Below are positions 9,920 through 61,360 of a stretch of DNA of 64,000 nt, piece by piece; position 1 is the first letter of the stretch, and each line of letters begins with the position of its first letter. The position numbers and the translations under genes were made by a program. Below the pieces are notes generated by a model. It ran no database searches. It was given only the letters and a program-made list of their open reading frames with translations, and was not told where the DNA came from. Origin of the DNA: Escherichia coli (GTDB taxonomy: Bacteria > Pseudomonadota > Gammaproteobacteria > Enterobacterales > Enterobacteriaceae); NCBI RefSeq assembly GCF_013315695.1, contig NZ_CP054355.1, one strand, 5' to 3'.

Positions 9920-10246
9920 ATGACTAAAAATACTCGTTTTTCCCCCGAAGTCCGTCAACGGGCAGTCCGTATGGTTCTGGAAAGTCAGGGCGAATATGAC
10001 TCACAATGGGCGACAATTTGTTCCATTGCCCCAAAGATTGGCTGTACACCGGAGACTCTGCGTGTCTGGGTACGCCAGCATGAGCGGAATACCGGAGGCG
10101 GTGATGGCGGGCTCACCACCGCTGAACGTCAGCGTCTGAAAGAGCTGGAACGTGAAAATCGTGAACTGCGCCGCAGTAACGATATCCTTCGCCAGGCTTC
10201 CGCTTATTTTGCGAAGGCGGAGTTCGACCGCCTCTGGAAAAAGTGA
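9920..10246 (+). CDS. IS629 transposase OrfA
   Basis: [19 protein letters not shown]... HTH/leucine-zipper OrfA of the IS3 family. Confidence 0.8.
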
Positions 10247-11738: not shown

Positions 11739-12934
<1,196 letters not shown>

Positions 12935-16533: not shown

Positions 16534-17776
16534 TCCGCCGGGCCGGGAACCAGGTGCCGATCAACGCAATCAGTACCGCAATCACCAGTACGCACGGCAC
16601 CACAATCCAGGCAAAATTAAGCGGCGCGTCGAAGAGCATGACGCCAATCGCTTTCGCCAGCCCCCACCCGGCAATACATCCCAGCGCACCGCCAGCCAGC
16701 CCGCTGGACGCCGCTTCCAGGTAGAACAGCAGCATAATTTGCCACTGTCGCGCACCCAGCGCTTTCATCAAACCGATCTCTTTGGCGCGTTCCATAATGG
16801 TGCTGGTCATCAGCGAGGCGATCCCCATTGCGGAAGCCACCAGCGCCGCGACGGTAACGACCGCCATCAGCAACTGAATTTTATCGATCACCACCCCTTC
16901 GGACGCCGCGACCTGCCATACCGGGCGCACTTCCGCACCGGAAATCGCCTCTTCCAGCTGATGCGCGATCGACGACACATAGGCCGTGCAATACCAGAGG
17001 TCGTACTCTTCGGCATTGAGCGCGTCCAGGTTTTCCCGCGCGCGGCGGGACAGTTCGTTTTCCGGCACCGTCAGCGCCGAGACGCGAATCGCCTGCACTT
17101 TTCCGGGGAGCCCCAGCAGGTGCTGTACCGTGCTTAGCGGCATCACCAGTTGGTTATCTTCATCGCCGCCGCTGGAGAGGATACCGCTGACGGTGACCTG
17201 CACTGCTTCGCCTTCGGTACGTAATGTCAGCTTATCACCGGGTTTCCAGCCCATTTGCCGCGCCAGCGCGTGCCCGACTAAGGTCTGCGGCTCTGCGCCT
17301 GCGGGTTCCTGCGGCCAGTCGCCGGTCACCTGCCAGTATGGGCTGACCGTTTTCTGCCCCGTCTCATATCCCTCTTCATCAGGAATATCCACTGGCTGAC
17401 TGAAGAAAGTGCCCAGAATCCGCACTGGTTCTCCCTCCACGCTGGCTTCGCCGCCGAGCATCGGCGCAAACCCGACAATGTTGTTTCGCCAGAAGATATC
17501 TTTGATGTTCGGCAGCTCGGCTTCATCAAGAAAATCCTGACCGGAAAGCGGATTACTGCTCTCACTAAACAGCGCGGGCAGCGCAGCCTGTCCGGCGGGT
17601 TCAATCAAAATGTTCGCACCATAAGACTTCAGCTCTCTGGACATTTTGTCGCCGATATCAATGGACACCGCCAGCAGCGCCGAGATCAGGCTGGAGGCCA
17701 GAAAAACGGTGATTATCGCCAGCACTTTGCGGCGTAAATTGCGCCCCCAGGATTGTCGTAACATCCGCCACAGCAT
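16493..17776 (-). CDS. ABC transporter permease (FtsX/MacB-like), second copy
   Basis: Same architecture as the adjacent permease; overlaps it by about 40 bp. Confidence 0.7.
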   Translation of the reverse strand: MLWRMLRQSWGRNLRRKVLAIITVFLASSLISALLAVSIDIGDKMSRELKSYGANILIEPAGQAALPALFSESSNPLSGQDFLDEAELPNIKDIFWRNNIVGFAPMLGGEASVEGEPVRILGTFFSQPVDIPDEEGYETGQKTVSPYWQVTGDWPQEPAGAEPQTLVGHALARQMGWKPGDKLTLRTEGEAVQVTVSGILSSGGDEDNQLVMPLSTVQHLLGLPGKVQAIRVSALTVPENELSRRARENLDALNAEEYDLWYCTAYVSSIAHQLEEAISGAEVRPVWQVAASEGVVIDKIQLLMAVVTVAALVASAMGIASLMTSTIMERAKEIGLMKALGARQWQIMLLFYLEAASSGLAGGALGCIAGWGLAKAIGVMLFDAPLNFAWIVVPCVLVIAVLIALIGTWFPARRIARLYPVEVLYGR

Positions 17777-17778
17777 GA

Positions 17779-19158
17779 TTATTCCTCCCTCATGTCGGCA
17801 GGAACAAACTGCTCCGGCGTTTCACGGAAGCGTTCATAGTTAGCCTCTGACGAGAAGAACCAGGTCTTGCCGCCATAGCTGTATTTGTAATCGGCTGAGG
17901 TATTGGTCAACGTTGAACCATCGACCGGATCGGTCACTTTAATAGTCATGACCGTCGAGAAGTAGTTCACCCCTGTCGCCAGTTCTTTACCGGGGATCAC
18001 CAGCTCTTTTTCATCATTGTGCCAGTTTTCAATCGGCACCGGGTTACAGCCACCGGCCTTGCCGATAGACGGAATAAAAATATGCACTCCGCAGGCGACG
18101 CAGATAACCTGATTGCCCTCCATGACATAACCCTGATCGCCGCACAGCAGGCAGGCGTCGAACACCACGCCAAAACGCAGCTTGTCGGGATAGCGGTTAA
18201 TCACGAAGAAGCGCACCGCTTTGCCATCGTCCGCCACCCAGACGAAACGATGCAGTTTACCGTCACGAAGCTGTTCAACCGGCAGGCGCACCATGCCATC
18301 GCTCCCCAGCGTTACGGGCACGGCTTCAGAGAGTTGCGGCGGCTGCGAGGCCACTTTATCCCACCACAGTTGGCCTGCGATAACGACCACCGCGCAGCCG
18401 ATTGTGACCAACCACAGCCGCAAAGCGTTGCGACGCTGCGCCAGCGCCAGACGGTGAGCAATCGGTTCTTCGGTTTCCCGCGTCTGTCGAAAAGCCCGCA
18501 ACAGCGCCGGAAGCCAGCACAGCGCCAGGGCCAGCAGCAGCGCGGCTCCCGCCCAGTTATACAGCGCCGTGTTATTTGTGACTTTCGCCACGAAGCTCAG
18601 CAGTGATTTTCCCAGCGGAACAACCTGTAATTTCATCAGCAACAACAGCAGGTTGCCGCTCAGCGGCAGCCAGATCATCACCAGCAGAATCAGCGTTAAC
18701 GGCCAGTACAGGCCGCGAATACGCCGCAGCAGCATCGCGCAGAGTACGCCCGCCAGACAGAGGATCGCAAAAGCGAGAACGACGGCCGTCAGGTTTAACA
18801 GCAGGTCAGTATTCAGCACATGCGTACTGGTCAGCCCGCCCAGATTAGGGTCCAGCGCCCAATGGCGGGCAGCGCCGAAAATCAGAATCCCCTGCCACAG
18901 ATAGCGGATACGCGTTGAAGCCCACCAGAAACTGAGGACAAACAGCAGCGATACCATGACCTCCGCCCCAACCAGCAGCAGTTGTACCGGTTGGCTGCCG
19001 TGAATAAACAGTCCCGCCAGCACGCCGGCAATCAGCCCGGTCAGCAGCGTCCAGGTCAGCGGACGTAAAGAGGGAGGATCGTTTCGACTCCAGAGAACAC
19101 CGGAAAGAAGCGCAATGCAGAAAAAGACCTGTAGCGTCGTGACGAAAAAGTAACTCAT
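17779..19158 (-). CDS. polytopic membrane protein with C-terminal Cys-cluster and YHS-like domain (Cj1660-like)
   Basis: Multiple hydrophobic helices; C-terminal CLLCGD...CVACG...GGC and ..YGGKTWFFSS..ANYERF. Confidence 0.5.
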   Translation of the reverse strand: MSYFFVTTLQVFFCIALLSGVLWSRNDPPSLRPLTWTLLTGLIAGVLAGLFIHGSQPVQLLLVGAEVMVSLLFVLSFWWASTRIRYLWQGILIFGAARHWALDPNLGGLTSTHVLNTDLLLNLTAVVLAFAILCLAGVLCAMLLRRIRGLYWPLTLILLVMIWLPLSGNLLLLLMKLQVVPLGKSLLSFVAKVTNNTALYNWAGAALLLALALCWLPALLRAFRQTRETEEPIAHRLALAQRRNALRLWLVTIGCAVVVIAGQLWWDKVASQPPQLSEAVPVTLGSDGMVRLPVEQLRDGKLHRFVWVADDGKAVRFFVINRYPDKLRFGVVFDACLLCGDQGYVMEGNQVICVACGVHIFIPSIGKAGGCNPVPIENWHNDEKELVIPGKELATGVNYFSTVMTIKVTDPVDGSTLTNTSADYKYSYGGKTWFFSSEANYERFRETPEQFVPADMREE

Positions 19159-19829: not shown

Positions 19830-21776
19830 TTATGGGTTATTTTTTATCGTCTCCCCGGGAACCGCGCTTTTGCGCCGCATCACCCACAGCGCCACCAGCG
19901 CCGCGAGCAGCAATACGACCTGCGGTAACAACGTTTCCACGTAGGGATAAATCCCCAGCCAGCTGATTTCAGGGAAGCCGTTAATCAACGTAGGCTGGAA
20001 CAGTTTGCCTTCCACCAGTTCCAGAACGCCTTTGCCCGCAAAGACGAAGGCCATCAGATACATGAAACTGCCGGTAAACATAAAGAAGGGTTTCAGCGGC
20101 AGGCGCACCACTGAGTAACGCATCACCAGCCAGGCGAGCAGCAGCACCACGCAGCCAATCACAAAACCGGCGCCAATCGCCATATGGCCGGATACCGTGT
20201 TTGCATCGCCAATCAGAGCGTAATAGAACAGCACCGTTTCCGCCCCTTCGCGGTACACCGCCAGGAAGCTGGTCAGCCATAGTCCGACCAGGGAGCCTCG
20301 CGACAGGGAATGAGACAGTTTGCCTTCCAGCCAGGCTTTCCAGTGGCGCGCTTCCACTTTGGACAGCAGCCAGTAACTCATAAAGAACAGCATCACGACG
20401 GCAATCAGCATCGTTATGCCTTCCAGCAGTTCACGGCTGGCGCCGGAGTTAGTAAACAGCATCTGGAAGATAGCGGCGGTGATGACGCTGGCGATCAGCG
20501 CCACAATTACCGACTGACGAATAAGCGGCAGCTTATCCTGATGGTTGTTTTTCACCATGTAGGCCACGATTGCCGCAACAATCAGCAGCGCTTCCAGCCC
20601 CTCGCGCACGATGATCATCAGACTATAGAGCAGCAGACTCCACTGGGTTTCTTCGCCTTCGCCCAGCATCGTCACGGCTTTTTGCAGATCCTGCGCCAGC
20701 GCGCTGGCCTCTGCATTCAGGCGCTCAACCGGCTGACCGGCCTTCATCAGACTGACCAGGCGGGTAAAATACGCCTCCAGCGTGGTTTTAAATGCCGAAT
20801 CGCGAGAGCCGATTTTGTTTTCCATGCCGCTGGCTTCGAAGCGGTCGAAGTAGGTATCCTGGATATCCAGAATCGCATTCTTCGCATCGCCGCCCTGATA
20901 GCGCGCTATCGCGTCCTGAATGCTCTGGTTAATTCCCGTCGTCACCTCAGCCCAGTCGGTGCGGTTATTTCCCTCGTCCGCCGCCGGAATGTTGTCTGCG
21001 CTTTGCGCTGCGGCAACCTGCTGATCGTCACGGGTGGTTGGCAAGCCGGGTAAGATATCCTCGATATCCTGTAGCAGCGTAGTGACCTGATAGGAGACAT
21101 CGTTGAGATGGTCAGGTTGCGCGGTCAGCGCAATCAGGGATGAGAATTGTTGGTTAATGGAGGCGGCATCTTTTGCAGAACGGTTTTGTCTGAGGGACAT
21201 CTCCATCTCAGAGTTTTTAAAGCCCTGATAGTGCGCCTGTTGAACGTGCTGACTGGCAACGCTGTAATTCCCGGCCTGATATTCAGTGACCGCCTGCGCC
21301 AGCAGATCGTCGATCGTCCTGAAACTCTCCTGCCAGTGAACGGCAATGTCGTCCCTGGACAGCGCGTTGTGCTGCTCTTCGGCCACCAGACGATGTCCGC
21401 CATCCAGCACCGGTTCCACTTCGCGCAGTGCGGCTTTCAGCCAGTCAATGCGCGCCTGGACGTCAGCGAGCGGTTTTTTCTCGCCAATCATTCGACGGAT
21501 CTCGCCGAATGCGCTCTCCATCTCGTAACTTTTGCGCGCGGAAATGTTGATGCGGATCGGCCCTTCCAGGTTCTCGAACACCTCAAAATAGGCCATTTGT
21601 ACCGTGCGGCGCGCCTCGTCGGCATGCTGTTGCTGATAAAGTTCCGCTGTTTTATCAAGACGTTGCTCGATATCTTCAATCAAAGGCGCATAATTCGTCG
21701 ACGCCCAGACACTCATGCTTATAAACAAGCCAAAGAGAGTAACCAACAAAGAGTTACGGAAGTTACGCACGTGCAC
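19830..21776 (-). CDS. fetM: FTR1-family iron permease with large N-terminal periplasmic domain (FetM-like)
   Basis: 648 aa; two RExxE motifs (REGLE, REGAE) in the C-terminal membrane domain. Confidence 0.7.
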   Translation of the reverse strand: MHVRNFRNSLLVTLFGLFISMSVWASTNYAPLIEDIEQRLDKTAELYQQQHADEARRTVQMAYFEVFENLEGPIRINISARKSYEMESAFGEIRRMIGEKKPLADVQARIDWLKAALREVEPVLDGGHRLVAEEQHNALSRDDIAVHWQESFRTIDDLLAQAVTEYQAGNYSVASQHVQQAHYQGFKNSEMEMSLRQNRSAKDAASINQQFSSLIALTAQPDHLNDVSYQVTTLLQDIEDILPGLPTTRDDQQVAAAQSADNIPAADEGNNRTDWAEVTTGINQSIQDAIARYQGGDAKNAILDIQDTYFDRFEASGMENKIGSRDSAFKTTLEAYFTRLVSLMKAGQPVERLNAEASALAQDLQKAVTMLGEGEETQWSLLLYSLMIIVREGLEALLIVAAIVAYMVKNNHQDKLPLIRQSVIVALIASVITAAIFQMLFTNSGASRELLEGITMLIAVVMLFFMSYWLLSKVEARHWKAWLEGKLSHSLSRGSLVGLWLTSFLAVYREGAETVLFYYALIGDANTVSGHMAIGAGFVIGCVVLLLAWLVMRYSVVRLPLKPFFMFTGSFMYLMAFVFAGKGVLELVEGKLFQPTLINGFPEISWLGIYPYVETLLPQVVLLLAALVALWVMRRKSAVPGETIKNNP

Positions 21777-24720: not shown

Positions 24721-27708
24721 TTAAGGCTGTTTTTTGTACTGACTGACATCAACTGCTCGCAAAGGACGATACTTCCCTTCAGCCAGCTTCTTATTGTTTT
24801 TCCAGATATAGTCCCCTGTCAGATTAATGTGCTCCCAGCCCAGCGGAGACAAATGTGACAACAATTGCTCATTAATATGTAGCCCTTTCTTTTTCAGCAG
24901 GTTAATGGCGTTTTCTATATATACGGTATTCCACAAAGTGATTGCGGCAGTGAGCAGCGTAAGCCCACTGGCGCGGTAACTCTGGTTTTCAATACCACGA
25001 TCCCTTATTTCTCCCAGACGATGCATGAAGACAGCTCTGGCAAGGGCATTCCGGGCTTCCCCTTTGTTCAGACCTGCCTGAACCCTACGACGAAGCGCCG
25101 GATCGCGGAACCAGTCCAGCATGAACAGTGTTCGCTCAATACGACCAATTTCTCTTAACGCCTTAGCAAGGCCATTCTGTTTCGGATAACTGGTCAATTT
25201 TTTCAGCATCAGAGAAGCGGTCACTGTTCCCTGTTTTATTGAGGTCGCCAGTCTCAGAATTTCATTCCAGTGTATTTTTATCTCTTTGATATTCAGGGGG
25301 GTTGTGGAGATAATTGACTGTAGAGCAGGATAGTTATCAGCTTTACCTTGAATAAACAAACGTTTGTCATGCAGATCCCGGATCCTTGGGGCAAAAGCGA
25401 ATCCCAGCAGATGCATTAGTGCAAAAACATGCTCCGTGAAACCTGCTGTATCGGTGTAATGTTCCGTTATATCAAGGTCACTTTCGTGATACAGAAGACC
25501 ATCAAGTACGTGGGTGGAATCACGAACACGACTGATTACTTTGGTATAAAACGGACTATATTGATCTGAGATATGCGTATAAAACTGCACCCCAGGTTCC
25601 TGACCGTACTTCAAATTAACCTGACCGGCATAGCGCCCATGACTGCCAACCCTAAAATTCTGGCCGTCAGAGGATGAGGTGGAACCGTCTCCCCATAATG
25701 CCGCCAGCGGTCGTGACTTCTGGGCATTAACCAGTTCTGCCAGTGCAGCAGAGTACGTTTCATCACGGATGTACCATGCTTGTATGTTTTCCAGCGAAGC
25801 TCGTGTGGTTCCCGGACAGGACTCTGCCATTTTTTCCAACCCTAGATTGATGCCGTCCGCCAGGATAGTGGTTAGTAGTAAACGATTATCCTGAGGACGG
25901 ATTAGCGGATTCTTAAGATGAGTAAAATGTCGCGAGAAGGCAGTCCATCGCTCGACTTCATCAAGTATCTCTGTAATTTTGGGGTGCGGTAGCATGTTGT
26001 AAATCAGGTCGGCCAGGGGAGAGACTGTTGAAGGAACGCTGTTATCCAGTGGGGTGATCTTTACACCTTTATCTGAAATATCCACATCAGGAAGCTCCCC
26101 TGCGACAGCCATTGCGTTAACTTCCTCCAGACGGGAGGCCAGTAGAGTCAGTCTGGCATTAAGATAAGCCCCGCATTCTGTGCCAACAGGTAAATTTAAT
26201 AGGTTATTATTTAATAACTTTTCGAAATCATCGTTAGGCATAAGATAATCATCAAAGTTTTTGTAGCGCCGGGAGCCCCTGACCCAGATATCACCCGCCC
26301 GCAGCGCCCCCTTTAGCTCATTCATTGCGCAAATTTCATAGTATTGTCGGTCAATGCCTGAGGGGGTGACCACCATCTTTCTCCAGCTCTCAGGAATGAA
26401 ATCCAGTGGTGCCGATGCAGGAACCTTTCGTAGCTGTTTACGGTACATATCACGAATAGTTTCAAGGGCATCATTAAGCGGCAACGCTGCCGAAGTGGCT
26501 CTCAGTTGCAGGGCCGATAGAAAACGAAAAGAATATTTGCGCAATGTACTGAATTTTTCGGTAATAAGATGAAGCGGCTCAAAATTATCCTTACGTGCAA
26601 GAAGCTTTGTTTCCTCCAGACTGGCGACAAAATCGTCCCACGGTAACACTCGTTCAATAGCAGACAGAGGATCTTCGCCTGCATTGCGTGCATCCAGGAT
26701 AGCCTGGCCAACAGAAACATACTGACGTAACTTTTGCTGTATCAACTTGCCCGTTTTCTGAAGACGCTCAGCCTGCTGATGTTTTGCCCGACTGAACATG
26801 CTGCCTAGAATACGTTCATGCAGTTCTATAATTTCATCAATGATTGTGGCTCTGGCCTCAGTCAGTACACAGACCATCGTTGCGTATCGACGAGCAGGGG
26901 AAAAATCAGCCAGATCGCGACTGCTCATTTTGCGGCCCTCACGCGCGAGTTTCAGCAATCGGTTCTGGTGAACGGTTCTCTCCACTCCTTCCGGCAGCGC
27001 CAGAGCTTCAATAGCGTTAAGGCGGTCAATGTGTTGCAGGACATTCTTTCCATTGATTTTCCCTGGAGGTTGAAGCAGCCACGTCAAACGGGATATTTGT
27101 TTTTCATTTGTCACCAACAGGGCATCAAGCGCAGATTTATGCGTGATATCAAGGTGCGCATTCAGCGTTGTATACACCGTTTTATCACCCAGTGTCATTG
27201 CTTCTGCACAGGTACGTTCCAGAACATCAATGCCTGGAATAATAATTCGCTGTTGATGCAGGTACTTTAGTAACTCCTCTGCGATAAGTATGCCTCTGTC
27301 CGTTCTGGTAGACAGAGGGAGCAGATGCCGGATACATTCTTTCTGAAGTGCACCGTTAAAGGCTTTCAGTTCAAGATATCGATAAAGTTCCCTCATATGC
27401 TCACGTCTGGTGGTATCACGACCGGAAACGTATTCCTGCCAAAGTTCTGCTGATAACTTAAGTCGAGCGCCAATGGTTTTTAGCAATTTTGCGGGTGGGG
27501 ATGATTTTTTATCCGGGGCAAACCCAATACTTTTCAGATAACAGAGAAGAACGGCAAAACCAAACCGGCTGGCAGGTTTACGGTGAGCATTGATAATTGC
27601 CAGATCCTGCTCACTGAAATACGTCATTCGAGTCAGTGTTAACTCATCGTCTGGCAATGCCAGTAATGATTCTCTTTCCGATAGAGAAAGAATCTGCCTC
27701 CTTGCCAT
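24721..27708 (-). CDS. tnpA: Tn3-family transposase TnpA
   Basis: 995 aa; stop codon lies inside the terminal IR as in Tn3-family elements. Confidence 0.8.
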   Translation of the reverse strand: MARRQILSLSERESLLALPDDELTLTRMTYFSEQDLAIINAHRKPASRFGFAVLLCYLKSIGFAPDKKSSPPAKLLKTIGARLKLSAELWQEYVSGRDTTRREHMRELYRYLELKAFNGALQKECIRHLLPLSTRTDRGILIAEELLKYLHQQRIIIPGIDVLERTCAEAMTLGDKTVYTTLNAHLDITHKSALDALLVTNEKQISRLTWLLQPPGKINGKNVLQHIDRLNAIEALALPEGVERTVHQNRLLKLAREGRKMSSRDLADFSPARRYATMVCVLTEARATIIDEIIELHERILGSMFSRAKHQQAERLQKTGKLIQQKLRQYVSVGQAILDARNAGEDPLSAIERVLPWDDFVASLEETKLLARKDNFEPLHLITEKFSTLRKYSFRFLSALQLRATSAALPLNDALETIRDMYRKQLRKVPASAPLDFIPESWRKMVVTPSGIDRQYYEICAMNELKGALRAGDIWVRGSRRYKNFDDYLMPNDDFEKLLNNNLLNLPVGTECGAYLNARLTLLASRLEEVNAMAVAGELPDVDISDKGVKITPLDNSVPSTVSPLADLIYNMLPHPKITEILDEVERWTAFSRHFTHLKNPLIRPQDNRLLLTTILADGINLGLEKMAESCPGTTRASLENIQAWYIRDETYSAALAELVNAQKSRPLAALWGDGSTSSSDGQNFRVGSHGRYAGQVNLKYGQEPGVQFYTHISDQYSPFYTKVISRVRDSTHVLDGLLYHESDLDITEHYTDTAGFTEHVFALMHLLGFAFAPRIRDLHDKRLFIQGKADNYPALQSIISTTPLNIKEIKIHWNEILRLATSIKQGTVTASLMLKKLTSYPKQNGLAKALREIGRIERTLFMLDWFRDPALRRRVQAGLNKGEARNALARAVFMHRLGEIRDRGIENQSYRASGLTLLTAAITLWNTVYIENAINLLKKKGLHINEQLLSHLSPLGWEHINLTGDYIWKNNKKLAEGKYRPLRAVDVSQYKKQP

Positions 27709-31208: not shown

Positions 31209-31295
31209 ACCATCCTGCACTTATGTTGCACAGAAGGAGTGAGCACAGAAAGAAGTCTTGAACTTTTCCGGGCATATAACTATACTCCCCGCATA

Positions 31296-31386
31296 GAGCA
31301 ACAGCTTCTATGCAGTTTCTTGTTAGCCCCGGTAATCTTTCCTACTCGCCAAAGTTGAAGAAGATTATCGGGGTTTTCGCTTTTCT
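31296..31386 (+). ncRNA. copA: CopA-like antisense RNA of the IncFII replicon (approximate)
   Basis: Plus-strand stem-loop ccccggtaatctt...aagattatcgggg followed by ttttcgctttt, between repA2 and repA1. Confidence 0.45.
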
Positions 31387-33352: not shown

Positions 33353-33596
33353 GTTATTCTCCATATCAGATAAATGGCACCTGTATTTCAGGCATCCTGA
33401 ACATTGCAGCACACAATGAATAACACCTTGTTTTGTGAAATAAATCACAAAATATAAAATCTCGACTTAATACGGAAAAAACTCTGTGCTACTCAGAACT
33501 GTACGGTCATACTGCCCGACCGGATATTAAAAAAAGCAAATCTCATGCATTATTCAGCCTTCTGAATCCCTGGAGTAATGAAGGCTGCTTTTTTCG

Positions 33597-33818
33597 TTAC
33601 ACCCTTCCCCGGCTGCGCCGGTGGCAGTGTTCAGCCCTTTTTCGGGCAAACTGCTGCCAGTCTGTCCGGGGCGCAACACCGGCAGCCCGTCGCCATGCTT
33701 CTGCCGCTTCCATCCAGCGTCCACTGACCTCCAGAATAACGGCCCGGCTTCCGGCACGCTGCCAGCGCCAGACCTGACCGTTCCGTGAACTGTTTCTGAA
33801 TCCATTCATCTTTATCAC
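33597..33818 (-). CDS. small Arg/Trp-rich hypothetical protein
   Basis: 73-aa ORF; weak support. Confidence 0.2.
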   Translation of the reverse strand: MIKMNGFRNSSRNGQVWRWQRAGSRAVILEVSGRWMEAAEAWRRAAGVAPRTDWQQFARKRAEHCHRRSRGRV

Positions 33819-36288: not shown

Positions 36289-39200
36289 TCAGTCTCCGCC
36301 CAGGGTTTTCTCTTTCTGCAGGTCACGAACCATATCCCGCTCCATCTGCTGCAGACGCTCCTGCAGCAGATTTTCCCGGGCAACCTCCCGGACCGCTTCC
36401 CGCTCCCGTTGTGATTCACGCAGCACACTCTCCGGCAGTGCGGTTTCCCGTTCAGATATGGCAGACCGGTCACGCTCCTGTCCGGCAATATCCCTGACAG
36501 CCAGCTCTGTTTTGCCATCCGGCAGGTCAGGTTTGTTCTCTGCCATTTTCCTGACAATTTCATCTGCGCGGCGTTCCGTTTCACGGCGGATGGCCTCTTC
36601 AGCCTGCCGCTGTGCCAGTACCTCTGCCGTGACCGGTTCGCCATTTCCGGCCCCCGGCTGGACGCTGTTATCCGGGATATCCCCCCACACGCGGCCACCG
36701 GTGATGGCACCGGGATTCCACGGACGACCTTCACCGGCAATTCTCACCACCACACCGCTGTCAGGATTATCACGGGCAATCCGGACGCCATCCTGCATAT
36801 TATCAGCCAGCAGGCTCTCTCCGTTACGGCTGCCCTGCAGGGCCACGAACTGCGCATCCCCGCTGCCTTTCACCCGTCCTTCACCACTGAATCCCCGCAG
36901 CCCGTTTCCGTCATCCGTGGTCAGTGGGTTCAGCCAGATACCAGCTGACTTGCCGTTACGGTCAAACGCCGGCAGTGCCACATACGGCTGCGGATATTTA
37001 CGTCCCGGTGCAATAAACCGTGCAGGGCTGTCTCCCCCGGCCAGCCCTGCCTGACGGAGAACGGCACGGCCTGCCGCCACGTCCCGCAGTTCCCGTGCCG
37101 TACTGAACAGCCGCTGCGCATTCATGACCTCCCGGTCCGGTTTCGGCTCCAGCACATCGTGGGCAGTTCCTTTCTGTACGGCATTGTTAATGGCATCCGT
37201 CCAGCCCTGACGGTTATCGGTGTACACCTGCACATGCTGCTTCATACGCGACAGGGCCACGTAGGCTGACTCAAAGCCGGCCATCAGTTTCCGGTTACCT
37301 TCCGTGCCTTCAAGCGCGATGGCAAAGGTTTCACTCGCCCCCTGCGCACCGTGGGCGGTGATGGCATAAGCCAGGTCAATATGTTGCTCTGCCCGCTCCT
37401 GGCCGGGGCGAATCACCCGGGTCTGCTGTCCGTCTGACAGCGTGACACTGTCACCGGAAACCGCTGTCACCGTCCAGACGCTGTTGGCCACATAACCGCG
37501 CTCCCGGTCACTCTTCGTGAAGCGCATCCGGTCGCCGGTCCCCACCCGGATTTTGTCCGGGGTGTACAGTGTGACACCTTCAGCCACCGCCTCCCGGGGC
37601 GAAATCAGCCGCGTGTTACCTTCCGCATCCTCCAGGGTTATCAGCCCGTCATCCTTGCTGATACCGGCAATCCGGTGATACACACTATCCACCAGGGCAA
37701 GGGCATCCGGGTTATTCTCCCAGGTGGAGAGACGACGCAGCTCCCCGTCACGTATATTCGCTGTGTTCAGGACAGGCACCATGACCTGCTCTTTCCCCAG
37801 CTCACCGGCCTTTTCCCGTGCATCATGAATCATGCTGTTCAGTACGCGCCGGTCCTCATTCAGGTGCGTGACAATCAGCGTCTGCTCCCGTGCTTCCGGT
37901 GTCCTGCCGGTATAGTCGCGGACAATGGCTTCATACAGTGTCATGGGGACATCCGGAAAAGTCTCACCTTTCAGCATCGCCTTCTGCTGCGCTTCTGCCA
38001 GTTTCGCTTCCTGGCTGTGACTGAACTCCGTCACGGAGTGCTCCGGTGCCCATGCGCCCTCCTGACGGGGAACCTGAGACGGTTTCACACTCTCAAGCCC
38101 GGACAGTGCCCTTTCCACATCCCGGTTAATCAGGCTGTATACCGCCTCCCGCAGTTCCGGCGTCTGACGCACAATCTCCTTCATGATGACCACATCGGCA
38201 GCACTGCGCGTCTGCTGGAGACGGAAAGGCTGACCGGGCGCGATGGCCTGCAGCTGGTCCGTGTCACCACTGGCCACGGCACGACCGCCACCGGCCGCAA
38301 TCAGGGCGTATGCCCGTGCCATGTCGGTATTGCCCACCATTGAGCTCTCATCGAGCAGGAACAGCGTGTTGCTGAAATCCGGCGTTTCTCCGCTGCGCTG
38401 CTGCAGCTGCGTGTCATGCAGAAAGGACGCCAGCGTCTGTGCATCCACGCCGGCGCTGCGCATCTCACCGACCGCACGGTGCGTGGGCCCCAGCCCCACA
38501 ACTCGGGGACGCTCACTCGCCGGCAGCATGTTCACGGCTGACATCACCGCCCGGAACTGTGTGGTCTTACCCACACCGGCATAACCCTGTACCACCGTGA
38601 AACGGTCGGACGTTTCCAGTATCATACGGGTGGCGGCACGCTGTCCCGACGTTAACGTCTCCATGAGTTCGCCGGGTACTCTCTCCATCAGCGGCGTGAC
38701 CGCCTCCTTACCTTCGAGAATATGGCGAAGAATACTTTTTTCTGCCTCATACGACGCACGGGAAACCAGCAGGCCTGTGCCATAGCCTTTTGCCACATCC
38801 ACATACAGTAAGTCACCGCGTTTTATCTGCGCATTGATTTCCCCTCCCAGTTCAGTAAAACCGGTTCCTTCTGCAGCAAACGACTTCGCCTCTGTCAGCA
38901 GGTCCACCATGCTGAAGGCCAGGTTTTTACTTTCCAGCACAGGAAGGGCCAGATGAATGGCCTGCTGTGCCGGCGTGTGCAGCCCGGTTTTCTGCAGACT
39001 GATAGCGGTTTCCAGCGATGTCTCACCGGCCCGCGCCTTTATCTGCTCAGAAACCACCGTAAAGGAGGGATGGCGGGCAAGTTTTTCCGCAGTACGGGTT
39101 TCATCCAGTGAGGAATACAGCCGGACATCACGACCGCTGCGGGCCAGACCGTTCAGGGTGGCGTTGTCCATTGCCATCTGTGTGACGGAGGCAAACACCG

Positions 39201-41559
39201 TCGCACTGTCACTGACGGAATGCCCGGGCGTTTCCACCCAGCCGTTCTCCAGCTTCAGTGCCGTGAACGGTGAATCAGCCACAGGCAGGGTGGCCGGTTC
39301 AGCCCGCCCCGGCACAACAACCGTCATCGCATCTTCACTGACGGATGCCACCTGCAGGCGGTCACCGCCGGAGACGCGGAGTCCGGGAATTTTCCCTGTC
39401 ACCCTCAGTCGCTCGCCGTCTGCCACCGGCATTTTTTCCGGCCGGAACAGCGACCAGCTGCTGTCCAGGGAGGAAATACGCACCACCTGCGTTTCGCCCT
39501 GCGCATCCCGCAGGGTCAGGCTGTGACTCTGCGCCGTCACCCGGTCGATAACATAGCGGTCATGACTGCGTGTCTCCGGGTTCCACTGCTCCATCACCAT
39601 CCCCGGTCGGTACATATCCCGCAGATAACGGCTCCGGCTGTCCAGCCAGACCGGTGACAGGGCGGTCATGGTCACCTCCGGGTGTCCGAGCACGCCCTGT
39701 GTTTTCAGCTCACTGCGAATGGCCTGTGTCAGTATGGCCTGTTCCCGTACCCCGCTGACCTGTGCCACGCTCTCTTCTCCGGCTTTCACGCTGGCCGCAA
39801 AATCTCCGGCCAGCCGGTCATAGCGGACATTCCGGTCCGGTTCACTGATGATGGTTGCCGGTCGCTGTTCTCCGCCCTGCCAGCGATACGTGTTCACCCC
39901 GGTATCCTTCATGGCCATCAGCGCACTGCCTGTACCGGTTCGCTGCCCGCTGTCGGTTATCAGGACCTGTACGTTATGACGTGCGGCACCGTCCAGCAGG
40001 GTTAACGTCTCTTTCAGGGAGAGTTTTTCGCCCTGGTCGACGATAACAGTACTGCCCGGCGTGAAGACCATGCCCTCCTGCAGCTGACGACGTCCGGTTA
40101 TCAGCTCACCGGACAGCCGTTCATCCTGCTTCAGGTTCATCTGCGAGCGACGGTCAGCAGCGATAATCTGCACCTCCCGCCCCTGCTCCCGGGCCATCAT
40201 GACCAGTTCAGCCACCCGCTCACGCTGCCCGGCTGCACCGCCCTGCCCGGACACAATGGCCAGCGACGGACGGTCCTGTGCCAGAACACTGACCGCATCG
40301 CTGTAACCAGCCGTCCGGGGGACACTTTTCTCCGGATGTACGGTCACCCGGTTCTGTTTCATGATGTCACGACTGAGTGCCCGGACGGACAGCTCATCGA
40401 GCACATGAATTCCTGATGTGAACAGCCCCTTCTCACGGTCGAGGGGGATAAGCTGCTCACGGCTGATGGCCTCATCGATACCGGCGCGTGCCCGTTCAAT
40501 CACACCATTTTCCGGCGGCAGTATGCCGACCGTCCTGGCCAGCACGTCCGTATACGTGAACTGCACTTTTCGTTCACTTAATCCGGCAATCGCCTGTGTC
40601 ACCGCCTGCTGCACATCCGGCCCGTCCTGTGAAGCAGGCCCGGGCGCCTGCGTGCGGATCTCCGCACGCTGATCCGCCGCGTCACGATATGCCCGGATGT
40701 CGAACCCGGTTTCCTTCAGCGTCTGCATCCATTCAGCCATTCTGATTTCCGGATCGACGTGCTGTTTGGATTTACGCGTATCCAGTGCCGCCACATCCCG
40801 GGATTTCAGCGAGGCGTCTTCCCCGACGGCCTCCCGGATAGCCTGTGAGCGTCCGGAAAAGGCCTCCACCGGTACGCCCGGCATCTCCCACATACCGTGC
40901 TTACCCACCACTTCGGTTTCATAGCCCAGCGCCTCAACCTGCTCTTTCAGTTTTTCCCGGTAGAGCCTGCCAAAGGCAATCTGATTAGCGTACACATTCT
41001 CAATGAACCCCGTTTTCCCCACTTTGTCACTGCTCAGTGTCTTCCACTCACCGTTATGCTGCGTGACATTAGCCACCACCGCATGCGTGTGTAACTGTGG
41101 TTCCTGATCGCGACTGGTGTCGTGGTTAAACAGTGCCATCACCAGATTACCGGTCAGCACCGTTTCTGACTGTCCGTCCGTCATCACCCGTGTGGAGGCC
41201 AGCGCCTCCACCTGACGAACAGCAAAGTCCACGGCCTGGTTATGTGCATCAATCAGGCGCTTATCGCCACCTAACATGGCCATCATGGAGACACTTTTGG
41301 GGGCGGAGAAGGTCAGGTCGTAGCCGGGACGATGCTTATTACTGCCATCCTGCATGCGGCTTAGATCCGCTCCGTCCGGCAGCCTTCCCTCCAGAAGACG
41401 GGTAAAAACATCCTTATCGACACTGCCCTGCAGTCCCAGCTGTTCAGCCCCCCTGCCGGCCCAGCGTTCTCCCATGCTGCCCAGTACATAGTAATTATCC
41501 TTGTCGGTATAATAGTTACCGGCACTTCCGGCCGATCTGACCTGCGCGATACTCATCAT
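36289..41559 (-). CDS. traI: relaxase/helicase TraI
   Basis: 1756 aa, N-terminal relaxase and helicase Walker motifs. Confidence 0.9.
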   Translation of the reverse strand: MMSIAQVRSAGSAGNYYTDKDNYYVLGSMGERWAGRGAEQLGLQGSVDKDVFTRLLEGRLPDGADLSRMQDGSNKHRPGYDLTFSAPKSVSMMAMLGGDKRLIDAHNQAVDFAVRQVEALASTRVMTDGQSETVLTGNLVMALFNHDTSRDQEPQLHTHAVVANVTQHNGEWKTLSSDKVGKTGFIENVYANQIAFGRLYREKLKEQVEALGYETEVVGKHGMWEMPGVPVEAFSGRSQAIREAVGEDASLKSRDVAALDTRKSKQHVDPEIRMAEWMQTLKETGFDIRAYRDAADQRAEIRTQAPGPASQDGPDVQQAVTQAIAGLSERKVQFTYTDVLARTVGILPPENGVIERARAGIDEAISREQLIPLDREKGLFTSGIHVLDELSVRALSRDIMKQNRVTVHPEKSVPRTAGYSDAVSVLAQDRPSLAIVSGQGGAAGQRERVAELVMMAREQGREVQIIAADRRSQMNLKQDERLSGELITGRRQLQEGMVFTPGSTVIVDQGEKLSLKETLTLLDGAARHNVQVLITDSGQRTGTGSALMAMKDTGVNTYRWQGGEQRPATIISEPDRNVRYDRLAGDFAASVKAGEESVAQVSGVREQAILTQAIRSELKTQGVLGHPEVTMTALSPVWLDSRSRYLRDMYRPGMVMEQWNPETRSHDRYVIDRVTAQSHSLTLRDAQGETQVVRISSLDSSWSLFRPEKMPVADGERLRVTGKIPGLRVSGGDRLQVASVSEDAMTVVVPGRAEPATLPVADSPFTALKLENGWVETPGHSVSDSATVFASVTQMAMDNATLNGLARSGRDVRLYSSLDETRTAEKLARHPSFTVVSEQIKARAGETSLETAISLQKTGLHTPAQQAIHLALPVLESKNLAFSMVDLLTEAKSFAAEGTGFTELGGEINAQIKRGDLLYVDVAKGYGTGLLVSRASYEAEKSILRHILEGKEAVTPLMERVPGELMETLTSGQRAATRMILETSDRFTVVQGYAGVGKTTQFRAVMSAVNMLPASERPRVVGLGPTHRAVGEMRSAGVDAQTLASFLHDTQLQQRSGETPDFSNTLFLLDESSMVGNTDMARAYALIAAGGGRAVASGDTDQLQAIAPGQPFRLQQTRSAADVVIMKEIVRQTPELREAVYSLINRDVERALSGLESVKPSQVPRQEGAWAPEHSVTEFSHSQEAKLAEAQQKAMLKGETFPDVPMTLYEAIVRDYTGRTPEAREQTLIVTHLNEDRRVLNSMIHDAREKAGELGKEQVMVPVLNTANIRDGELRRLSTWENNPDALALVDSVYHRIAGISKDDGLITLEDAEGNTRLISPREAVAEGVTLYTPDKIRVGTGDRMRFTKSDRERGYVANSVWTVTAVSGDSVTLSDGQQTRVIRPGQERAEQHIDLAYAITAHGAQGASETFAIALEGTEGNRKLMAGFESAYVALSRMKQHVQVYTDNRQGWTDAINNAVQKGTAHDVLEPKPDREVMNAQRLFSTARELRDVAAGRAVLRQAGLAGGDSPARFIAPGRKYPQPYVALPAFDRNGKSAGIWLNPLTTDDGNGLRGFSGEGRVKGSGDAQFVALQGSRNGESLLADNMQDGVRIARDNPDSGVVVRIAGEGRPWNPGAITGGRVWGDIPDNSVQPGAGNGEPVTAEVLAQRQAEEAIRRETERRADEIVRKMAENKPDLPDGKTELAVRDIAGQERDRSAISERETALPESVLRESQREREAVREVARENLLQERLQQMERDMVRDLQKEKTLGGD

Positions 41560-43784
41560 CAGAAATCATCTCCCGGCTCAACATCCTCCCCACGCTCCCG
41601 GTGCACATTAATGTTCACCTCTTCACGACGCTGCATCTGCTGCTGGATGTCCGGATGATTTTCCTGTTGCCATGCCTCATAAGCGGCCATATCCACCACT
41701 TCACCGGATTCACTGATCCCGGGTGGCAGTTGCTGTTCCATCTCTTCTTCCGGTTTCATTTTCAGCTCCTGCTCGATCCCCCCTGCCGGAACACTCACAC
41801 CTGCATCTGACTTCTTATCATTGATGACAGAAGACACTGGCTGTTGTGGCTGTTGTGGCTGTTGTGGCTGTTGTGGCTGTTGTGGCTGTTGTGGCTGTTG
41901 TGGCTGTTGTGGCTGTTGTGGCTGTTGTGGCTGTTCAGCCTGAGTCACATCTTCTCCGGAGGCAACCTCCGGTTCAAAGAGGCTGGCCATCTGACGACCT
42001 TCTGCTTCCCTTGCGGCAAGTACGGCACTCAGACGGTTCTCCATTTCCGGGTTGATGTCACGCGGAATAAACTCCGGAGCGACCTTCGGTCGTGCCTGAT
42101 ATTTCAGAGAGAGTTTGACTGCCGGATACGGTCCGGGCAGAGTGACATAGCAGGTCAGATCCGGCAGAGACTGAATGTCGGAATAACTGACCAGCGTCTG
42201 ACGCTCCATATCCTTACCGGTCGATACCCCGTCACGTACCGGGTCAGCACCGTAGGAATACTGCTCGCTGGCTTTCAGGTGCTCTTTCTCACCAATCTCA
42301 CCGGCAGCGAACTCTGCAATCTTATGGCTCGGGGAACGGAAAAAAGCACGGGTGTTCATGACGTCAAACAGCGTGGCCGCCGCTTTCTCACCGTAGATAT
42401 CTTCCAGCTGGGCATAGGACTGGATACCAAACACATAACAGCCACCGAACTTACGGGCTTCCGGCAGGATCTCCACCAGGTCCGGCAGTTTGTGTAACGT
42501 GGGTAACTCGTCACAGAAAAACCACACACGACGGTTACGGTTTTCTCCCATTGCCAGCAGACCACGAATGGCAATGGACAGCCACATGGAGATCACCGGC
42601 TTCAGGGAGGCATGGGTGTCGGCGTTCGACGAAATAAACAGCCAGCCGTTTTTCTGATCTTCCCGGACACCACGCATCCAGTCACGGATGGTAAAAGACT
42701 CACCGTTATGCTCAATCCCCTGCAGGTAACGGATGGCTTTCACGTAGTTGGTCAGCACAGCACGGATGGAAATCGCCGTTTTCTCAATTTTCTCTTCCAC
42801 CAGGTTGGCTGCCGGTGAATTACGCAGGAAGGTACGCAGTTTTTCAATTTTGATGGAAAGCAGTGTGTCCACCAGTTTGCTGTAGCTGCGGTTGGGGTCA
42901 TTACGCATCAGGTACGCCGCTTCCGCAAAAATGGTACGTCCTGAACCCTGCCAGAACGGGTCCTCTTTTGTACCCATAGGGATCAGAGTATTTGCGGTAT
43001 TATCAAAATCCGGCTGTGTCAGGCACTCCTTCCACAAATCCCATGCGGCACAGCGGGCATCCAGCGGATTCAGGATTTTATCGATGGAGGGATCATAGTA
43101 ACTTTTAACAAATTCCCCTGAACGGTCATAAATCACCACCATATCACCGCGCTGACGGGCATAGTTGGCCAGACGACGGATAACCTCCGACTTACCGGCC
43201 CCGACCGTGCCGTGCAGACAGAAGTTCTGGATTTCGGAATCCCGGATAATCGGCAGGTCGCCAATCCGGATATCGGAGTCCTTGCCGTCTTTTTTCAGCA
43301 TCCGGGCCACTTCTTTCGGGTTATCCGTCAGCTGACGCCCGCCGGTCACCTCATTTTCACTCTGCTGTTTCCCCTGATGCCCCAGAATCCAGGAGACAAC
43401 AAAGAAGGTGATCAGGCAAATAACCAGGGCCACGACAGACGCCAGAACGAATGCAGACCATAGCTGCTCTCCGCACCAGATCATATATTTATCATGCAGT
43501 ACCTGGGCAGCGTTCATCCGGAAGGTTTTGCCGTAATACTGGATCTCATAGACCGGCTGGGATTTTATTAAATCCCGCATGCCTTCCAGTGACGTACACC
43601 ACCAGTAAATACAGCCGTTGATAAACGTCTGCCAGCTTATTTTTACCCATAAGACCAGACCAATGAGGATCCAGAAAAAAATAAACAGGCAGTAAAGCAT
43701 GATATTGGCGATCTGGCTGAACATGCGGATACGCATGGACGCAATCTGACCGCCCTGGGTCATATCCTTTGCGTTAAAACTCAT
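41559..43784 (-). CDS. traD: type IV coupling protein TraD
   Basis: 741 aa, N-terminal TMs, Walker [10 protein letters not shown]-terminal (QQP)10 repeat. Confidence 0.9.
41841..41930. repeat. perfect 9-bp tandem repeat x10 (ctgttgtgg) encoding the (QQP)n tract of TraD
   Basis: Counted directly in sequence. Confidence 0.9.
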
Positions 43785-43834: not shown

Positions 43835-44572
43835 TTAATTCACAGAAACAGACCAGGTGTACCCTGTATGCCGGTGGTGATGCCCGCCTGCAGTCCTGCC
43901 GGAAGAGACCTTCTCTGTAACAATGTCAGTCAGGCGCAATACTTCAGACCAGTCACTCCCATGCGGAAACTGGATCTGAATAAAAAGGCGTACCCGTTCA
44001 CGGTGATCCAGAACTGTGTCCGGTTCATAAAAACGGCCACTGTCAGGAGAAACACAGGACGTTTTATTGATGAGATCATACTTATCGGCAGGAGACTGCG
44101 ATGAAATCGCCCAGGTGATATTCTCCGCCTGGTGGCCATCAATACGACTGCTCCCCGGCGTCCATGCAATTTCCTGCGCACTCGCCACGATGATCTCCCT
44201 GGAAACTTCAGCCAGCTTTCTGGGTGTACAGAATACCGGTGCCAGCACACACAGGGACAACAAATTACAGCTGACCGCCTCCGGTTTAAGCAAATTGCTC
44301 CCGGATTTTTCAGGAAAAGATATTTTTGTCAGTATTTCAGTTAATTCCTTATGCCTGAGAGAATTAATAAAGTACATGATAAGCATCATGAGAAACAATA
44401 TAACAATAAGCCCTCCGATAACCACTAAAAGGTCAGTATCAATATTATTGCTGTACAGATAGTCTTTAGTGGTCACTGTATTATCCTGTATCACCGGGGG
44501 GTATTCAGTTACAGGCTTCTCAGTAAATTGATTATTCTCACCAACATATTCAGCGATATTGTCTGATGTCAT
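43835..44572 (-). CDS. hypothetical single-pass membrane protein inserted between traT and traD
   Basis: ATG at 44572 preceded by GGAGAAAG; one TM helix ([22 protein letters not shown]); no recognisable domain. Confidence 0.5.
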
Positions 44573-44644
44573 AATGACTTTCTCCGGAAGATCCCGGCTT
44601 CGCCGGCAACACTTCACGGTCGCACAAAGAATTTGCACAACCGC

Positions 44645-46029: not shown

Positions 46030-48851
46030 AATGGCCCCTTCAATCGTTCTTTCTTATCATCCACCATCTGTTTTAACGCATCTTCAGACGGTGTTGGCAT
46101 TAATTTCTGTCGTTTATTTTCTTCATTATATCTGTTGTTTTGCTGAATTTCTTCCTGTTTGTGATTATTTTTTAACTCTGAATATTGTCTGTCTACAATA
46201 TTTTCTTCGCCATGAATACTATTCTGAGTATCTCCGATATTCCCTTTATATTCTGTGACCATATTATCAACCTGATGTTTTACATCATTACGGATATTAC
46301 TGTCCTGCGTTCTTTGATCAATAATGACCTGATGCCCCTGATGGTCAGCAATAATATCCTGGCTGCCACCACCCGAAGGTACGCTCTCCATTCCTTTACC
46401 AATATCCCCACGGGATTCACGCCAGGCATTATCAACACCAGGCTGTACCTGTTCCTGCACAAAAGACCACGCCATAGCCCGACGGCGTTCTGCAATCTCC
46501 GGCGAACTGGTATTTGTCAGAATAGCTTCTGCATCCTGCGGTGCGCGTTTCATCACATACTGTGCAAACTGTTGCGACAAGTCTTCACTCATCTGCCCGC
46601 TCATGCTTTCAGTACGGGAGGCCATTTCCGCATATTCATGGCTGCGGGTCATATTCGTCGTGTACTGGTCGTAACTCTGTTTTGCTGAGTTCAGGGCTGC
46701 AGACAACTGGTCCACGCGGGAATCGGCATTATTGTCAGTATGGCTGCCGGATTCACTGACTTTGCGACTGGTAAAGTAATCGCTGGCCTCTTTAAAGTCC
46801 TTACTGGCTTTAGCATCGATATCATGGCGAGCATCATGGGTAGCCCTGCTGCCACTACTTGCTGAATGTGAGTCATCATCCGTTGCATCCAGGCTCCCCT
46901 TAAATCCACCTCTGATGCCTACCCCACCACCAACACCAAGAATTTTAGGTTTAACCCCCCATTCAGCATGAGCATCAGCATACATTCCACCAGATAGCCT
47001 GGTACTTGTTGATGCCAGTTCCTGAGTCGCCTGCTCATTACTGATATTATGCGCCTTCGCATAGCTTTCCACTGCACTGCGCATACGGCTGGCCATCATG
47101 GAGTCCTGTGCGCTCATCGTGCTGTCAGCACCACCTGTGACAGAATCACTGCTCCCCCGGTTAGAACCAAACTGGCTGAGCGAGTTCCAGGCACTGGCAA
47201 TACTGCTGCTGAACCCATGCAGGGCGCTTTCTGCTCTGTTCGACGCCTCCCGGGCCATTTCCTGTTGTGCCGCTGCAATCTGACGCGTTGCATTGATACC
47301 AACCGGTAACCGGGACATCGCCCCGCTCGCATCCATCACCATATTACCGTCACGGGTCTGTGTGGCAGTTGCGCCACTGCCGGTCTGGTACATCATCTGA
47401 CCAAACGACGTGGTGCTGTTGGTGCTCCAGCTGAAGCCGTTCACGTTTTCCGTCTGCATGTTGCCGTAGGAGTAATTACCGTCAACCACACTACCTGCCG
47501 CACTGGCAGTCGGGCTGATAGCAGAGGAAGCGAAATGGCTGTACACGCTGGAAAAACCTGCGCCAAGGCCTTTTACCATCATCCATGACAACGGGGGTAT
47601 CATGACAGATATATATCCGGCAGTGGACGCCAGGTCGGAGTATTTCAGCTGTATCTGAGAGAGTTCAGAGAGCACGACCGGTGCACCATTCTGCTTTGCA
47701 TAGAATGTCATGGCACTGTTCAGAATGGCATACAGCAACGGCCAGGTCTGGAACCACATCAGAGCAAACACATAGCCTCTCAGAACAGACAGCGTCAGTC
47801 TGTTGAAGACAGCCGCCAGTACCAGGAGCGGGAAGATACCAATGGTAATGCCCACCAGAATGGTCTGCACCATCGGCAGGTTTCGCATCAGCACATGACC
47901 AATGGAGACATGTGCCAGACGCTGTTTCTCCATTGACGAAGTCGTGGCCAGACTGACCAGGCTGGCGGTATCACCGTTACGGGCTGCATTACTGGTGATA
48001 CCCTCTTTCAGGGCATTCATGGTGACGTTCTGGCGCATAATATGACTGGCAGACTGGCTGGAGCCGTAGAAATAACTGTAACTGTCACTCACCAGTTGCC
48101 TGAATAACAGGTCCGGGTCCGGTCTGCCGCCAAATATCTGCTGCACATAATAATGCCAGGTCTTGCCTCCCGTCTTTGTATCGAGATTCAGCCTGTCTTT
48201 CAGCGTGACCGACGCATCTTTACAGGTTATGAAATTATTATTGCTGTCATAAACGCCCCGTAGCGGGCTGGGCCGGGAAAAAATCAGCGTGTAGGGGTCA
48301 CCGGAGGCCATCAGGTCTTCCAGCGTGTATTTGTGGTTCAGGTAAATATCCCCCAGCACGCAGTTCTGGACGTAGTCCTGAAACAGATTGATGATTTCCG
48401 GATTCCGGGACAGAAAATCGGTGCTTTTCACAATCAGGTTCGCCCCGAACAGCATGCCTGTCTTGCTGTAGGTGGCGCTGTCAGGCTGGGTGAATATCAT
48501 CTCGTAACTGGCCACCATTGCATGCCCGATACGGGTCGTCAGTGAAAGTGGCATCGCCAGTCCGACCGGCACATTATCCACCCGGTGAACTTTGACCAGG
48601 TCACTGTTATCAATAATCTGCACCGATGTACGGACATTAACCAGCAGGCTGATAAGCACAAACACGGCCACCCAGCCCAGCAAATCCATCACGTTGTGCC
48701 GCTGTACCCACATCACGGCCACCGCGAGAACAGACAATGTGAGCGCAATTTTTTCGATGGAATCCCACGTCCGGGTCCCCATAAAGGCGGCAATGGCGTT
48801 CAGGTTATTGCTTAACCACTCACCACCGGCAATCACATAGACTTCATTCAC
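46026..48851 (-). CDS. traG: mating-pair stabilisation protein TraG
   Basis: 941 aa, polytopic N-terminus, position. Confidence 0.85.
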   Translation of the reverse strand: MNEVYVIAGGEWLSNNLNAIAAFMGTRTWDSIEKIALTLSVLAVAVMWVQRHNVMDLLGWVAVFVLISLLVNVRTSVQIIDNSDLVKVHRVDNVPVGLAMPLSLTTRIGHAMVASYEMIFTQPDSATYSKTGMLFGANLIVKSTDFLSRNPEIINLFQDYVQNCVLGDIYLNHKYTLEDLMASGDPYTLIFSRPSPLRGVYDSNNNFITCKDASVTLKDRLNLDTKTGGKTWHYYVQQIFGGRPDPDLLFRQLVSDSYSYFYGSSQSASHIMRQNVTMNALKEGITSNAARNGDTASLVSLATTSSMEKQRLAHVSIGHVLMRNLPMVQTILVGITIGIFPLLVLAAVFNRLTLSVLRGYVFALMWFQTWPLLYAILNSAMTFYAKQNGAPVVLSELSQIQLKYSDLASTAGYISVMIPPLSWMMVKGLGAGFSSVYSHFASSAISPTASAAGSVVDGNYSYGNMQTENVNGFSWSTNSTTSFGQMMYQTGSGATATQTRDGNMVMDASGAMSRLPVGINATRQIAAAQQEMAREASNRAESALHGFSSSIASAWNSLSQFGSNRGSSDSVTGGADSTMSAQDSMMASRMRSAVESYAKAHNISNEQATQELASTSTRLSGGMYADAHAEWGVKPKILGVGGGVGIRGGFKGSLDATDDDSHSASSGSRATHDARHDIDAKASKDFKEASDYFTSRKVSESGSHTDNNADSRVDQLSAALNSAKQSYDQYTTNMTRSHEYAEMASRTESMSGQMSEDLSQQFAQYVMKRAPQDAEAILTNTSSPEIAERRRAMAWSFVQEQVQPGVDNAWRESRGDIGKGMESVPSGGGSQDIIADHQGHQVIIDQRTQDSNIRNDVKHQVDNMVTEYKGNIGDTQNSIHGEENIVDRQYSELKNNHKQEEIQQNNRYNEENKRQKLMPTPSEDALKQMVDDKKERLKGPL

Positions 48852-61222: not shown

Positions 61223-61332
61223 AAAATTTCCTTGCACATCCATTTTTTTGCGAATATTATTATTCCTGCTGAATATGATTCAATATCGCACGCTACTCAT
61301 CCATCCCAGGATAATGAGTTCATAGGTTGAAG

Positions 61333-61360
61333 TCTCAACACCCCCACTACGGGGGTGTTT
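61333..61360 (+). terminator. Rho-independent terminator
   Basis: acacccccactacgggggtg hairpin followed by T8. Confidence 0.6.

Follow-up and report, generated by a model that had tools for sequence, protein, structure and literature searches.

A 9-bp tandem repeat of variable copy number in the traD gene of an Escherichia coli IncF plasmid

The traD region and its tandem repeat

The window (the whole stretch of DNA that was analysed, 64 kb in length) is from an E. coli IncF plasmid. About 25 kb around the repeat described here display a typical F-like tra operon with the gene order of pU15A_B, a 69.5-kb plasmid from an E. coli urine isolate. This is the closest plasmid record in PLSDB and is about 98% identical. 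The traD gene is directly upstream of traI, and the stop codon of traD and the start codon of traI share one nucleotide at position 41559. The features at the locus are:

41559–43784, minus strand: traD, F-type type IV coupling protein, 741 aa (open reading frame list, Pfam, NCBIfam)
36289–41559, minus strand: traI, relaxase/helicase, 1756 aa (open reading frame list and annotation of the homologous plasmid pU15A_B)
41562–42065, minus strand: C-terminal extension of TraD, residues 574–741, past the TrwB-like ATPase domain and with no solved homologue
41838–41935, minus strand: perfect 9-bp tandem array of 10.9 copies, unit CAACAGCCA on the minus strand, which is TGGCTGTTG on the plus strand
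41838–41933, minus strand: codons for TraD residues 618–649, QP(QQP)10 (translation and codon listing)
41844–42497, plus strand: antisense open reading frame of 217 aa that starts with an LLW repeat (open reading frame list only)

The TraD amino acid sequence matches the NCBIfam model NF010254 over residues 1–741 with 1671.6 bits (cutoff 1221) and TIGR02759 with 834.2 bits (cutoff 521). Pfam domains are found at residues 32–128 (TraD_N), 172–561 (TrwB_AAD_bind) and 419–541 (TraG-D_C), and a Walker A motif, GTVGAGKS, is present in the translated sequence. Both model scores are above the curated cutoffs, and by these sequence models the gene is correctly identified as an F-type traD.

Tandem Repeats Finder shows a single 9-bp array at 41838–41935, with 10.9 copies, 100% matches, no indels and a score of 196. 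Direct reading of the sequence agrees with this and displays perfect head-to-tail 9-bp units. Read on the minus strand, the tract consists of CAG CCA and then ten times CAA CAG CCA, in frame within the open reading frame 41559–43784, and it encodes a stretch of 32 residues (positions 618–649 of the 741-aa TraD). An earlier note on this DNA had reported a perfect in-frame 9-bp repeat in traD. The repeat is real, and positions 41841–41930 given there are exactly ten units within 41838–41935. The ten full units hold, but the length of 90 bp does not, as a partial eleventh copy brings the tract to 98 bp. The codons CAA and CCA are rare outside the repeat: in the rest of traD, CAA is found 2 times versus 33 for CAG, and CCA once versus 24 times for CCG.

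Only one other tandem array with a score of at least 50 is present in the 64 kb, at 18492–18543. It has an 18-bp unit in 2.8 copies, is imperfect (82% matches), and lies inside a minus-strand open reading frame at 17779–19158 (459 aa) that gave no NCBIfam family match. Because this sole other array is imperfect, a chance origin of the 9-bp array in traD is not realistic.

The DNA of the tract has a minimum free energy of −2 kcal/mol, with z = 0.09 relative to shuffled sequence, and instability promoted by a hairpin is thereby ruled out. As the tract has no hairpin potential, simple out-of-register pairing suffices to explain changes in its length. An Rfam search showed no family overlapping the tract on either strand. 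The antisense open reading frame at 41844–42497 is rejected as a gene; it is fully antisense to the conserved traD and is a by-product of the repeat, and an equivalent was annotated in none of the homologous records fetched.

A 267-aa open reading frame on the minus strand (43835–44638) is found between traT and traD. It gave no NCBIfam family match, and its counterpart in pU15A_B is annotated as a hypothetical protein. Six Rfam matches at gathering score are present in the window, all on the plus strand and none overlapping the repeat:

10201–10317, plus strand: ALIL pseudoknot (Rfam)
31293–31382, plus strand: CopA-like RNA (Rfam)
33516–33700, plus strand: AS-pc02 (Rfam)
38634–38710, plus strand: AS-traI (Rfam)
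48047–48132, plus strand: AS-traG (Rfam)
61268–61359, plus strand: UptR (Rfam)

Outside the tra region, positions 1–29500 hold cargo that is unlike that of pU15A_B, which has a microcin B17 cluster:

5561–7822: open reading frame of the TonB-dependent haem receptor family
7792–9066: YncE-like propeller
11807–12787: IS5 transposase
15373–17776: two FtsX/LolCE-like ABC permeases
19830–21776: Ftr1/EfeU-like iron permease fusion
24721–27708: Tn3-family transposase

Copy number of the repeat among plasmids

The repeat is a known element that has already been published, both as the “QQP motif” and as a 9-bp variable number tandem repeat (VNTR) of F-like traD genes. The QQP motif of the TraD extension was described as variable in length, with QPQQP (5 residues) in F and 23 residues in R1 (Lang 2011, Mol Microbiol, PMC3245843). 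The gene, the position in the C-terminal extension and the Gln-Gln-Pro repeat are all as in the window. In the Salmonella virulence plasmid pSLT, a “9 bp VNTR in traD” displayed 5–19 repeats in 220 isolates by PCR fragment sizing, with 5–10 repeats within one genotype, while all 105 clade I isolates had one repeat (Hiley 2019, PMC6459517). In hybrid S. Enteritidis plasmids, 2–14 repeats encoding QPQ were reported (Ogunremi 2020, PMC7311658). The Salmonella traD VNTR resembles that of the window in having a 9-bp unit of Gln and Pro codons near the C-terminus, and its single-unit alleles are stable. It differs in host and plasmid lineage, the window being from an E. coli IncF plasmid, and the likeness concerns unit length, encoded residues and position.

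Copy number was surveyed with a query from which the tract had been removed and 400 nt of each flank joined, so that the ranking of matches is independent of copy number. An earlier query that included the repeat was dropped because its ranking favoured alleles with at least 10 units. A protein search with the C-terminal 178 aa was unfit for a census of copy number, as it was dominated by fragments (69 matches scored from 8000 candidates). The flanks-only query matched 4022 plasmid records in PLSDB. Of 5426 complete E. coli genomes, 2814 contain the flanks.

The best 60 of the 4022 records by flank similarity (≥98.8% identity) carry 3–27 units, with 20 distinct values, a median of 11.5 and a peak at 8–13 units. 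Fifty-eight of these 60 plasmids differ in length from the window by whole multiples of 9 bp. Both exceptions (H109 and H118) are explained outside the tract, by a 1-bp deletion in a run of six G and by an alignment that ends at the edge of the record. Three records, L001, L006 and L004, are free of differences over 780 nt of flank but have 27, 9 and 3 units, respectively; compared with each other, they show no mismatch to about 1000 nt. In a systematic sample of complete E. coli genomes, the length differences are multiples of 9 bp in 41 of 41 records that have no insertion between traD and traI, with nominal counts of 1–25 units. Seventeen records were fetched and their tracts parsed, and the parsed counts equalled the span-based counts wherever both existed. 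The intact traD loci in the fetched records are annotated at 720–792 aa.

Thus the hypervariable copy number that the earlier note had proposed is borne out, both by the range of 3–27 units in the 60 plasmids with the nearest flanks and by the 27, 9 and 3 units between identical flanks. The description of the tract as “expanded” is valid relative to the QPQQP of classical F; within its own lineage it is not, since 10 units lie close to the median (11.5; range 3–27). Compared with the motif lengths given by Lang 2011, the window has 32 residues, and the census reaches 27 units (83 residues) and adds variation among plasmids with identical flanks.

All units are identical within tracts of 19, 20, 22 and 27 units. 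The lineage of the window is built of CAACAGCCA (CCA-type units). Plasmids of E. coli, Klebsiella and Salmonella contain a second lineage, built throughout of CAACAGCCG (CCG-type units). The single-QQP-unit alleles of F type have the same span, 1539 nt, in 11 of 11 sampled records.

A second 9-bp indel is found at 41964–41972, upstream of the QQP tract by about 30 nt. A single CCGGAGGTT (EPEVASG) is present here in the window, and the CCG lineage has an imperfect duplicate, CCGGATGTG CCGGAAGTT (EPDVPEVVSG). Because of this indel, counts derived from spans are off by one unit in CCG-lineage alleles. In the classical F-type single-unit alleles (E. coli hits H177–H189 and L008), the toxin-antitoxin genes vapBC separate traD from traI, and a few records with vapBC have longer tracts, with spans of 1584–1620. 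The window has no insertion at this site, its traD and traI sharing 1 nt.

The flanks of the window tract resemble two different groups of records. Upstream of the tract the window is the same as L007 and L010 (0 of 546 nt differ), and downstream it is the same as L001 and L003–L006 (0 of 500 nt differ). It differs from the L007/L010 group downstream, and from the L001/L003–L006 group upstream.

The tract also affects how traD is represented in databases. Logan short-read contigs (L018–L022) break inside the tract, and in 5 of 5 places the partial traD starts 3 nt from the contig end. Many “partial TraD” protein entries, among them P0015, P0018, P0049 and P0056, begin or end in or beside the QQP run, and one of these, P0015, represents 304 member sequences. 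A run of six G (C6 on the plus strand) is located at 41778–41783, and the same −1 change in it is found in two records that are not related, L016 (E. coli plasmid pLH50-c-D) and L009 (an E. albertii plasmid). The change shifts the reading frame of traD about 50 nt past the tract, and traD is absent from the gene tables of both records. It could be a real inactivation or a homopolymer sequencing error.

Position of the repeat relative to the TraM-binding tail

Solved TrwB structures cover only residues 160–573 of TraD, and the repeat is located past this region. The C-terminal extension is described in the literature as unstructured and 150–200 residues long (Lang 2011, PMC3245843). The earlier note had placed the repeat in the C-terminal region of TraD, and it does sit within the extension. 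Three further features of this part of the protein are:

41763–41957, minus strand: predicted disordered linker that holds the repeat, TraD residues 610–674 (AlphaFold2)
41562–41675, minus strand: last 38 residues of TraD (704–741), the TraM-binding tail (sequence, with the mapping taken from the literature)
41562–41585, minus strand: last 8 residues of TraD, DVEPGDDF (sequence)

AlphaFold2 was run on TraD residues 564–741. Positions 47–111 of this fragment gave a pLDDT below 50 and no secondary structure, with helices predicted on both sides; the alignment was shallow (10 sequences), and a low pLDDT of this kind is weak evidence of disorder. Distant F-like TraD proteins (44%–54% identical here) have an unalignable segment rich in Pro, Ala and Gln at the position of the repeat, with conserved blocks flanking it. 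Variable Pro/Gln-rich linkers are found in other type IV coupling proteins and in bacterial surface or secretion proteins, where a disordered low-complexity tether connects a catalytic body to a short docking motif. The resemblance to these is a general one, and in the distant F-like TraD proteins compared here the P/A/Q-rich segment is not repetitive.

In F TraD, binding to TraM is reported to map to the 8 terminal residues (positions 710–717), and in published chimeras a swap of just these residues switched plasmid specificity. For R1 TraD, TraM binding is reported to need no more than the 38 residues at the C-terminus (Beranek 2004, as cited in a later paper). The tail of the window TraD has the features listed in the literature for the TraM-binding tail, i.e. 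it is acidic and has a Gly turn and an aromatic end. The repeat ends at residue 649, which is 92 residues before the C-terminus and 54 residues upstream of the 38-residue tail. It is therefore outside the 8–38 C-terminal residues that bind the tetramerisation domain of TraM. The earlier note had described the region of the repeat as that which contacts the relaxosome. The repeat itself is not the mapped contact, being 54 residues upstream of it. The QQP tract is a spacer upstream of the docking motif, and not the contact itself.

In 15 intact alleles with 1–27 units, the part of TraD after the tract always has 92 residues and always ends with DVEPGDDF, with just one Q/H difference within the last 50 residues. 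This constancy over 1–27 units means that repeat number varies independently of the known determinant of specificity. The suggestion that copy number could tune transfer specificity is thus unsupported, as neither DVEPGDDF nor its 92-residue distance from the tract changes in these 15 alleles.

Origin and meaning of the length variation

The variation is probably a frame-preserving length polymorphism, driven by slippage, of a tolerant and disordered linker, and it is probably roughly neutral. We infer both that slippage is the main mutational process and that the changes in length are nearly neutral. During replication, the nascent and template strands may re-pair out of register across identical units, and whole units would then be gained or lost. 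Unequal recombination between two alleles would likewise add or remove whole 9-bp units. Since the unit is three codons long, every product is in frame and just the number of QQP tripeptides changes. The disordered proline-rich spacer would join the hexameric ATPase body (to about residue 573) to the acidic tail that docks with TraM at oriT. A spacer of this type may tolerate large changes in length, which would allow copy number to drift fast, from 1 to at least 27 units, with the rest of the gene constant.

The purity of the units and the presence of codons that are rare elsewhere in traD fit a recent amplification of one DNA unit, and not codon-by-codon selection. The single-unit alleles look stable, in line with the threshold that slippage is expected to show. 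The peak at 8–13 units could reflect weak stabilising selection and not mutation dynamics alone. With its perfect short tandem repeat in a coding region and its presumed strand slippage, traD resembles the phase-variable contingency loci. It differs from these in that a 9-bp unit never shifts the frame, and all traced changes in the tract are in frame with no on/off switch. Phase variation is rejected on this basis: the unit is 9 bp, all traced tract changes are multiples of 9, and the annotated traD loci are intact at 720–792 aa.

That the apparent variation in length is an artefact of assembling or sequencing a low-complexity tract is extremely improbable. The short-read contigs that end within the tract, the many database entries that are fragments starting or stopping there, and the homopolymer frameshift near the tract in two records are what such an artefact would be expected to leave. 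Exact multiples of 9 bp were nevertheless found in 58 of 60 and in 41 of 41 complete, mostly circularised records, and PCR fragment sizing independently gave 5–19 repeats in 220 isolates (Hiley 2019, PMC6459517). In addition, the window tract is just 98 bp, which is under a typical read length. A change in length by whole units could instead come mainly from recombination between alleles, by unequal crossing-over or gene conversion. Hybrid tracts do occur. In one plasmid (L002, LR890662.1), 17 CCA-type units precede 6 of the CCG type, and the flank is of the CCA lineage upstream and of the CCG lineage downstream; another (L016, NZ_CP100504.1, pLH50-c-D) has its flanks arranged alike around 5 CCA-type units and 1 CCG-type unit. 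The window is itself a mosaic, with a breakpoint interval (−16 to +201, positions 41733–41949) that spans the tract. By comparison of tract and flank sequences, the traD mosaics L002 and L016 point to probable crossovers inside the tract, and these two hybrid alleles imply that slippage is not the sole process and that recombination also reshapes the tract. As the main source of the changes in length, however, recombination is very unlikely. L001, L004 and L006 have pure tracts between identical flanks with no visible exchange with a different allele, a pattern that slippage within a single molecule accounts for more readily, and pSLT was judged to be vertically transmitted and yet has 5–19 copies (Hiley 2019, PMC6459517).

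An adaptive reading is also to be weighed, according to which a longer or shorter QQP spacer would let the six TraD tails reach further or less far, and so engage TraM tetramers at oriT together more or less well, or would change the exploitation of TraD by R17-type phages. Slippage would in that case offer the plasmid a quick, reversible adjustment of transfer efficiency or of its sensitivity to phage. The tract is suitably placed, between the ATPase body and the TraM-binding tail, and the interaction of a single TraD tail with TraM is described in the literature as weak and as presumed to rely on avidity and a flexible tail. Lang 2011 (PMC3245843) lists QQP length among the differences between F and R1 that are possibly behind the plasmid-specific R17 phenotypes, attributes to the C-terminal extension a possible role in the different behaviour of F and R1 toward this phage, and proposes that phage have driven the diversification of TraD. 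The copy-number distribution also has a mode and is not flat. Against this, classical F, the reference conjugative plasmid, has one unit, and near-identical plasmids with an intact traD have 3–27. Specificity maps to the last 8 residues, which are invariant with repeat number, and literature searches found no experiment linking traD repeat number to a phenotype and no isogenic comparison. Tuning of this kind is therefore judged unlikely. A bolder form of the proposal, in which spacer length is a selected and rapidly reversible knob on the capture of the relaxosome through TraM at oriT or on the use of TraD by male-specific RNA phage, and in which crossovers in the tract would in addition shuffle the ATPase and TraM-tail halves of traD, is likewise unlikely. 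If tuning were true, plasmid populations would hold a standing variation, made by slippage, in transfer rate or in phage sensitivity. An effect of length on transfer or phage sensitivity would give plasmids a simple way to adjust their spread, but nothing here points in this direction.

With slippage in a tolerant linker as the preferred reading, the additions made here to what has been published are modest: the range to 27 units, the variation between identical flanks, the two lineages of units, the recombinant tracts, and the effect on short-read assembly. Their importance is mainly practical. Small-k Logan assemblies that break in the tract give rise to many of the “partial TraD” entries and can make an intact traD appear truncated. 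The tract changes faster than point substitutions accumulate, and it is thus a sensitive marker for IncF plasmids that are otherwise identical and a poor one for deep relationships. The range of lengths also shows how much change the tether between the ATPase and the TraM-docking tail of TraD can take.
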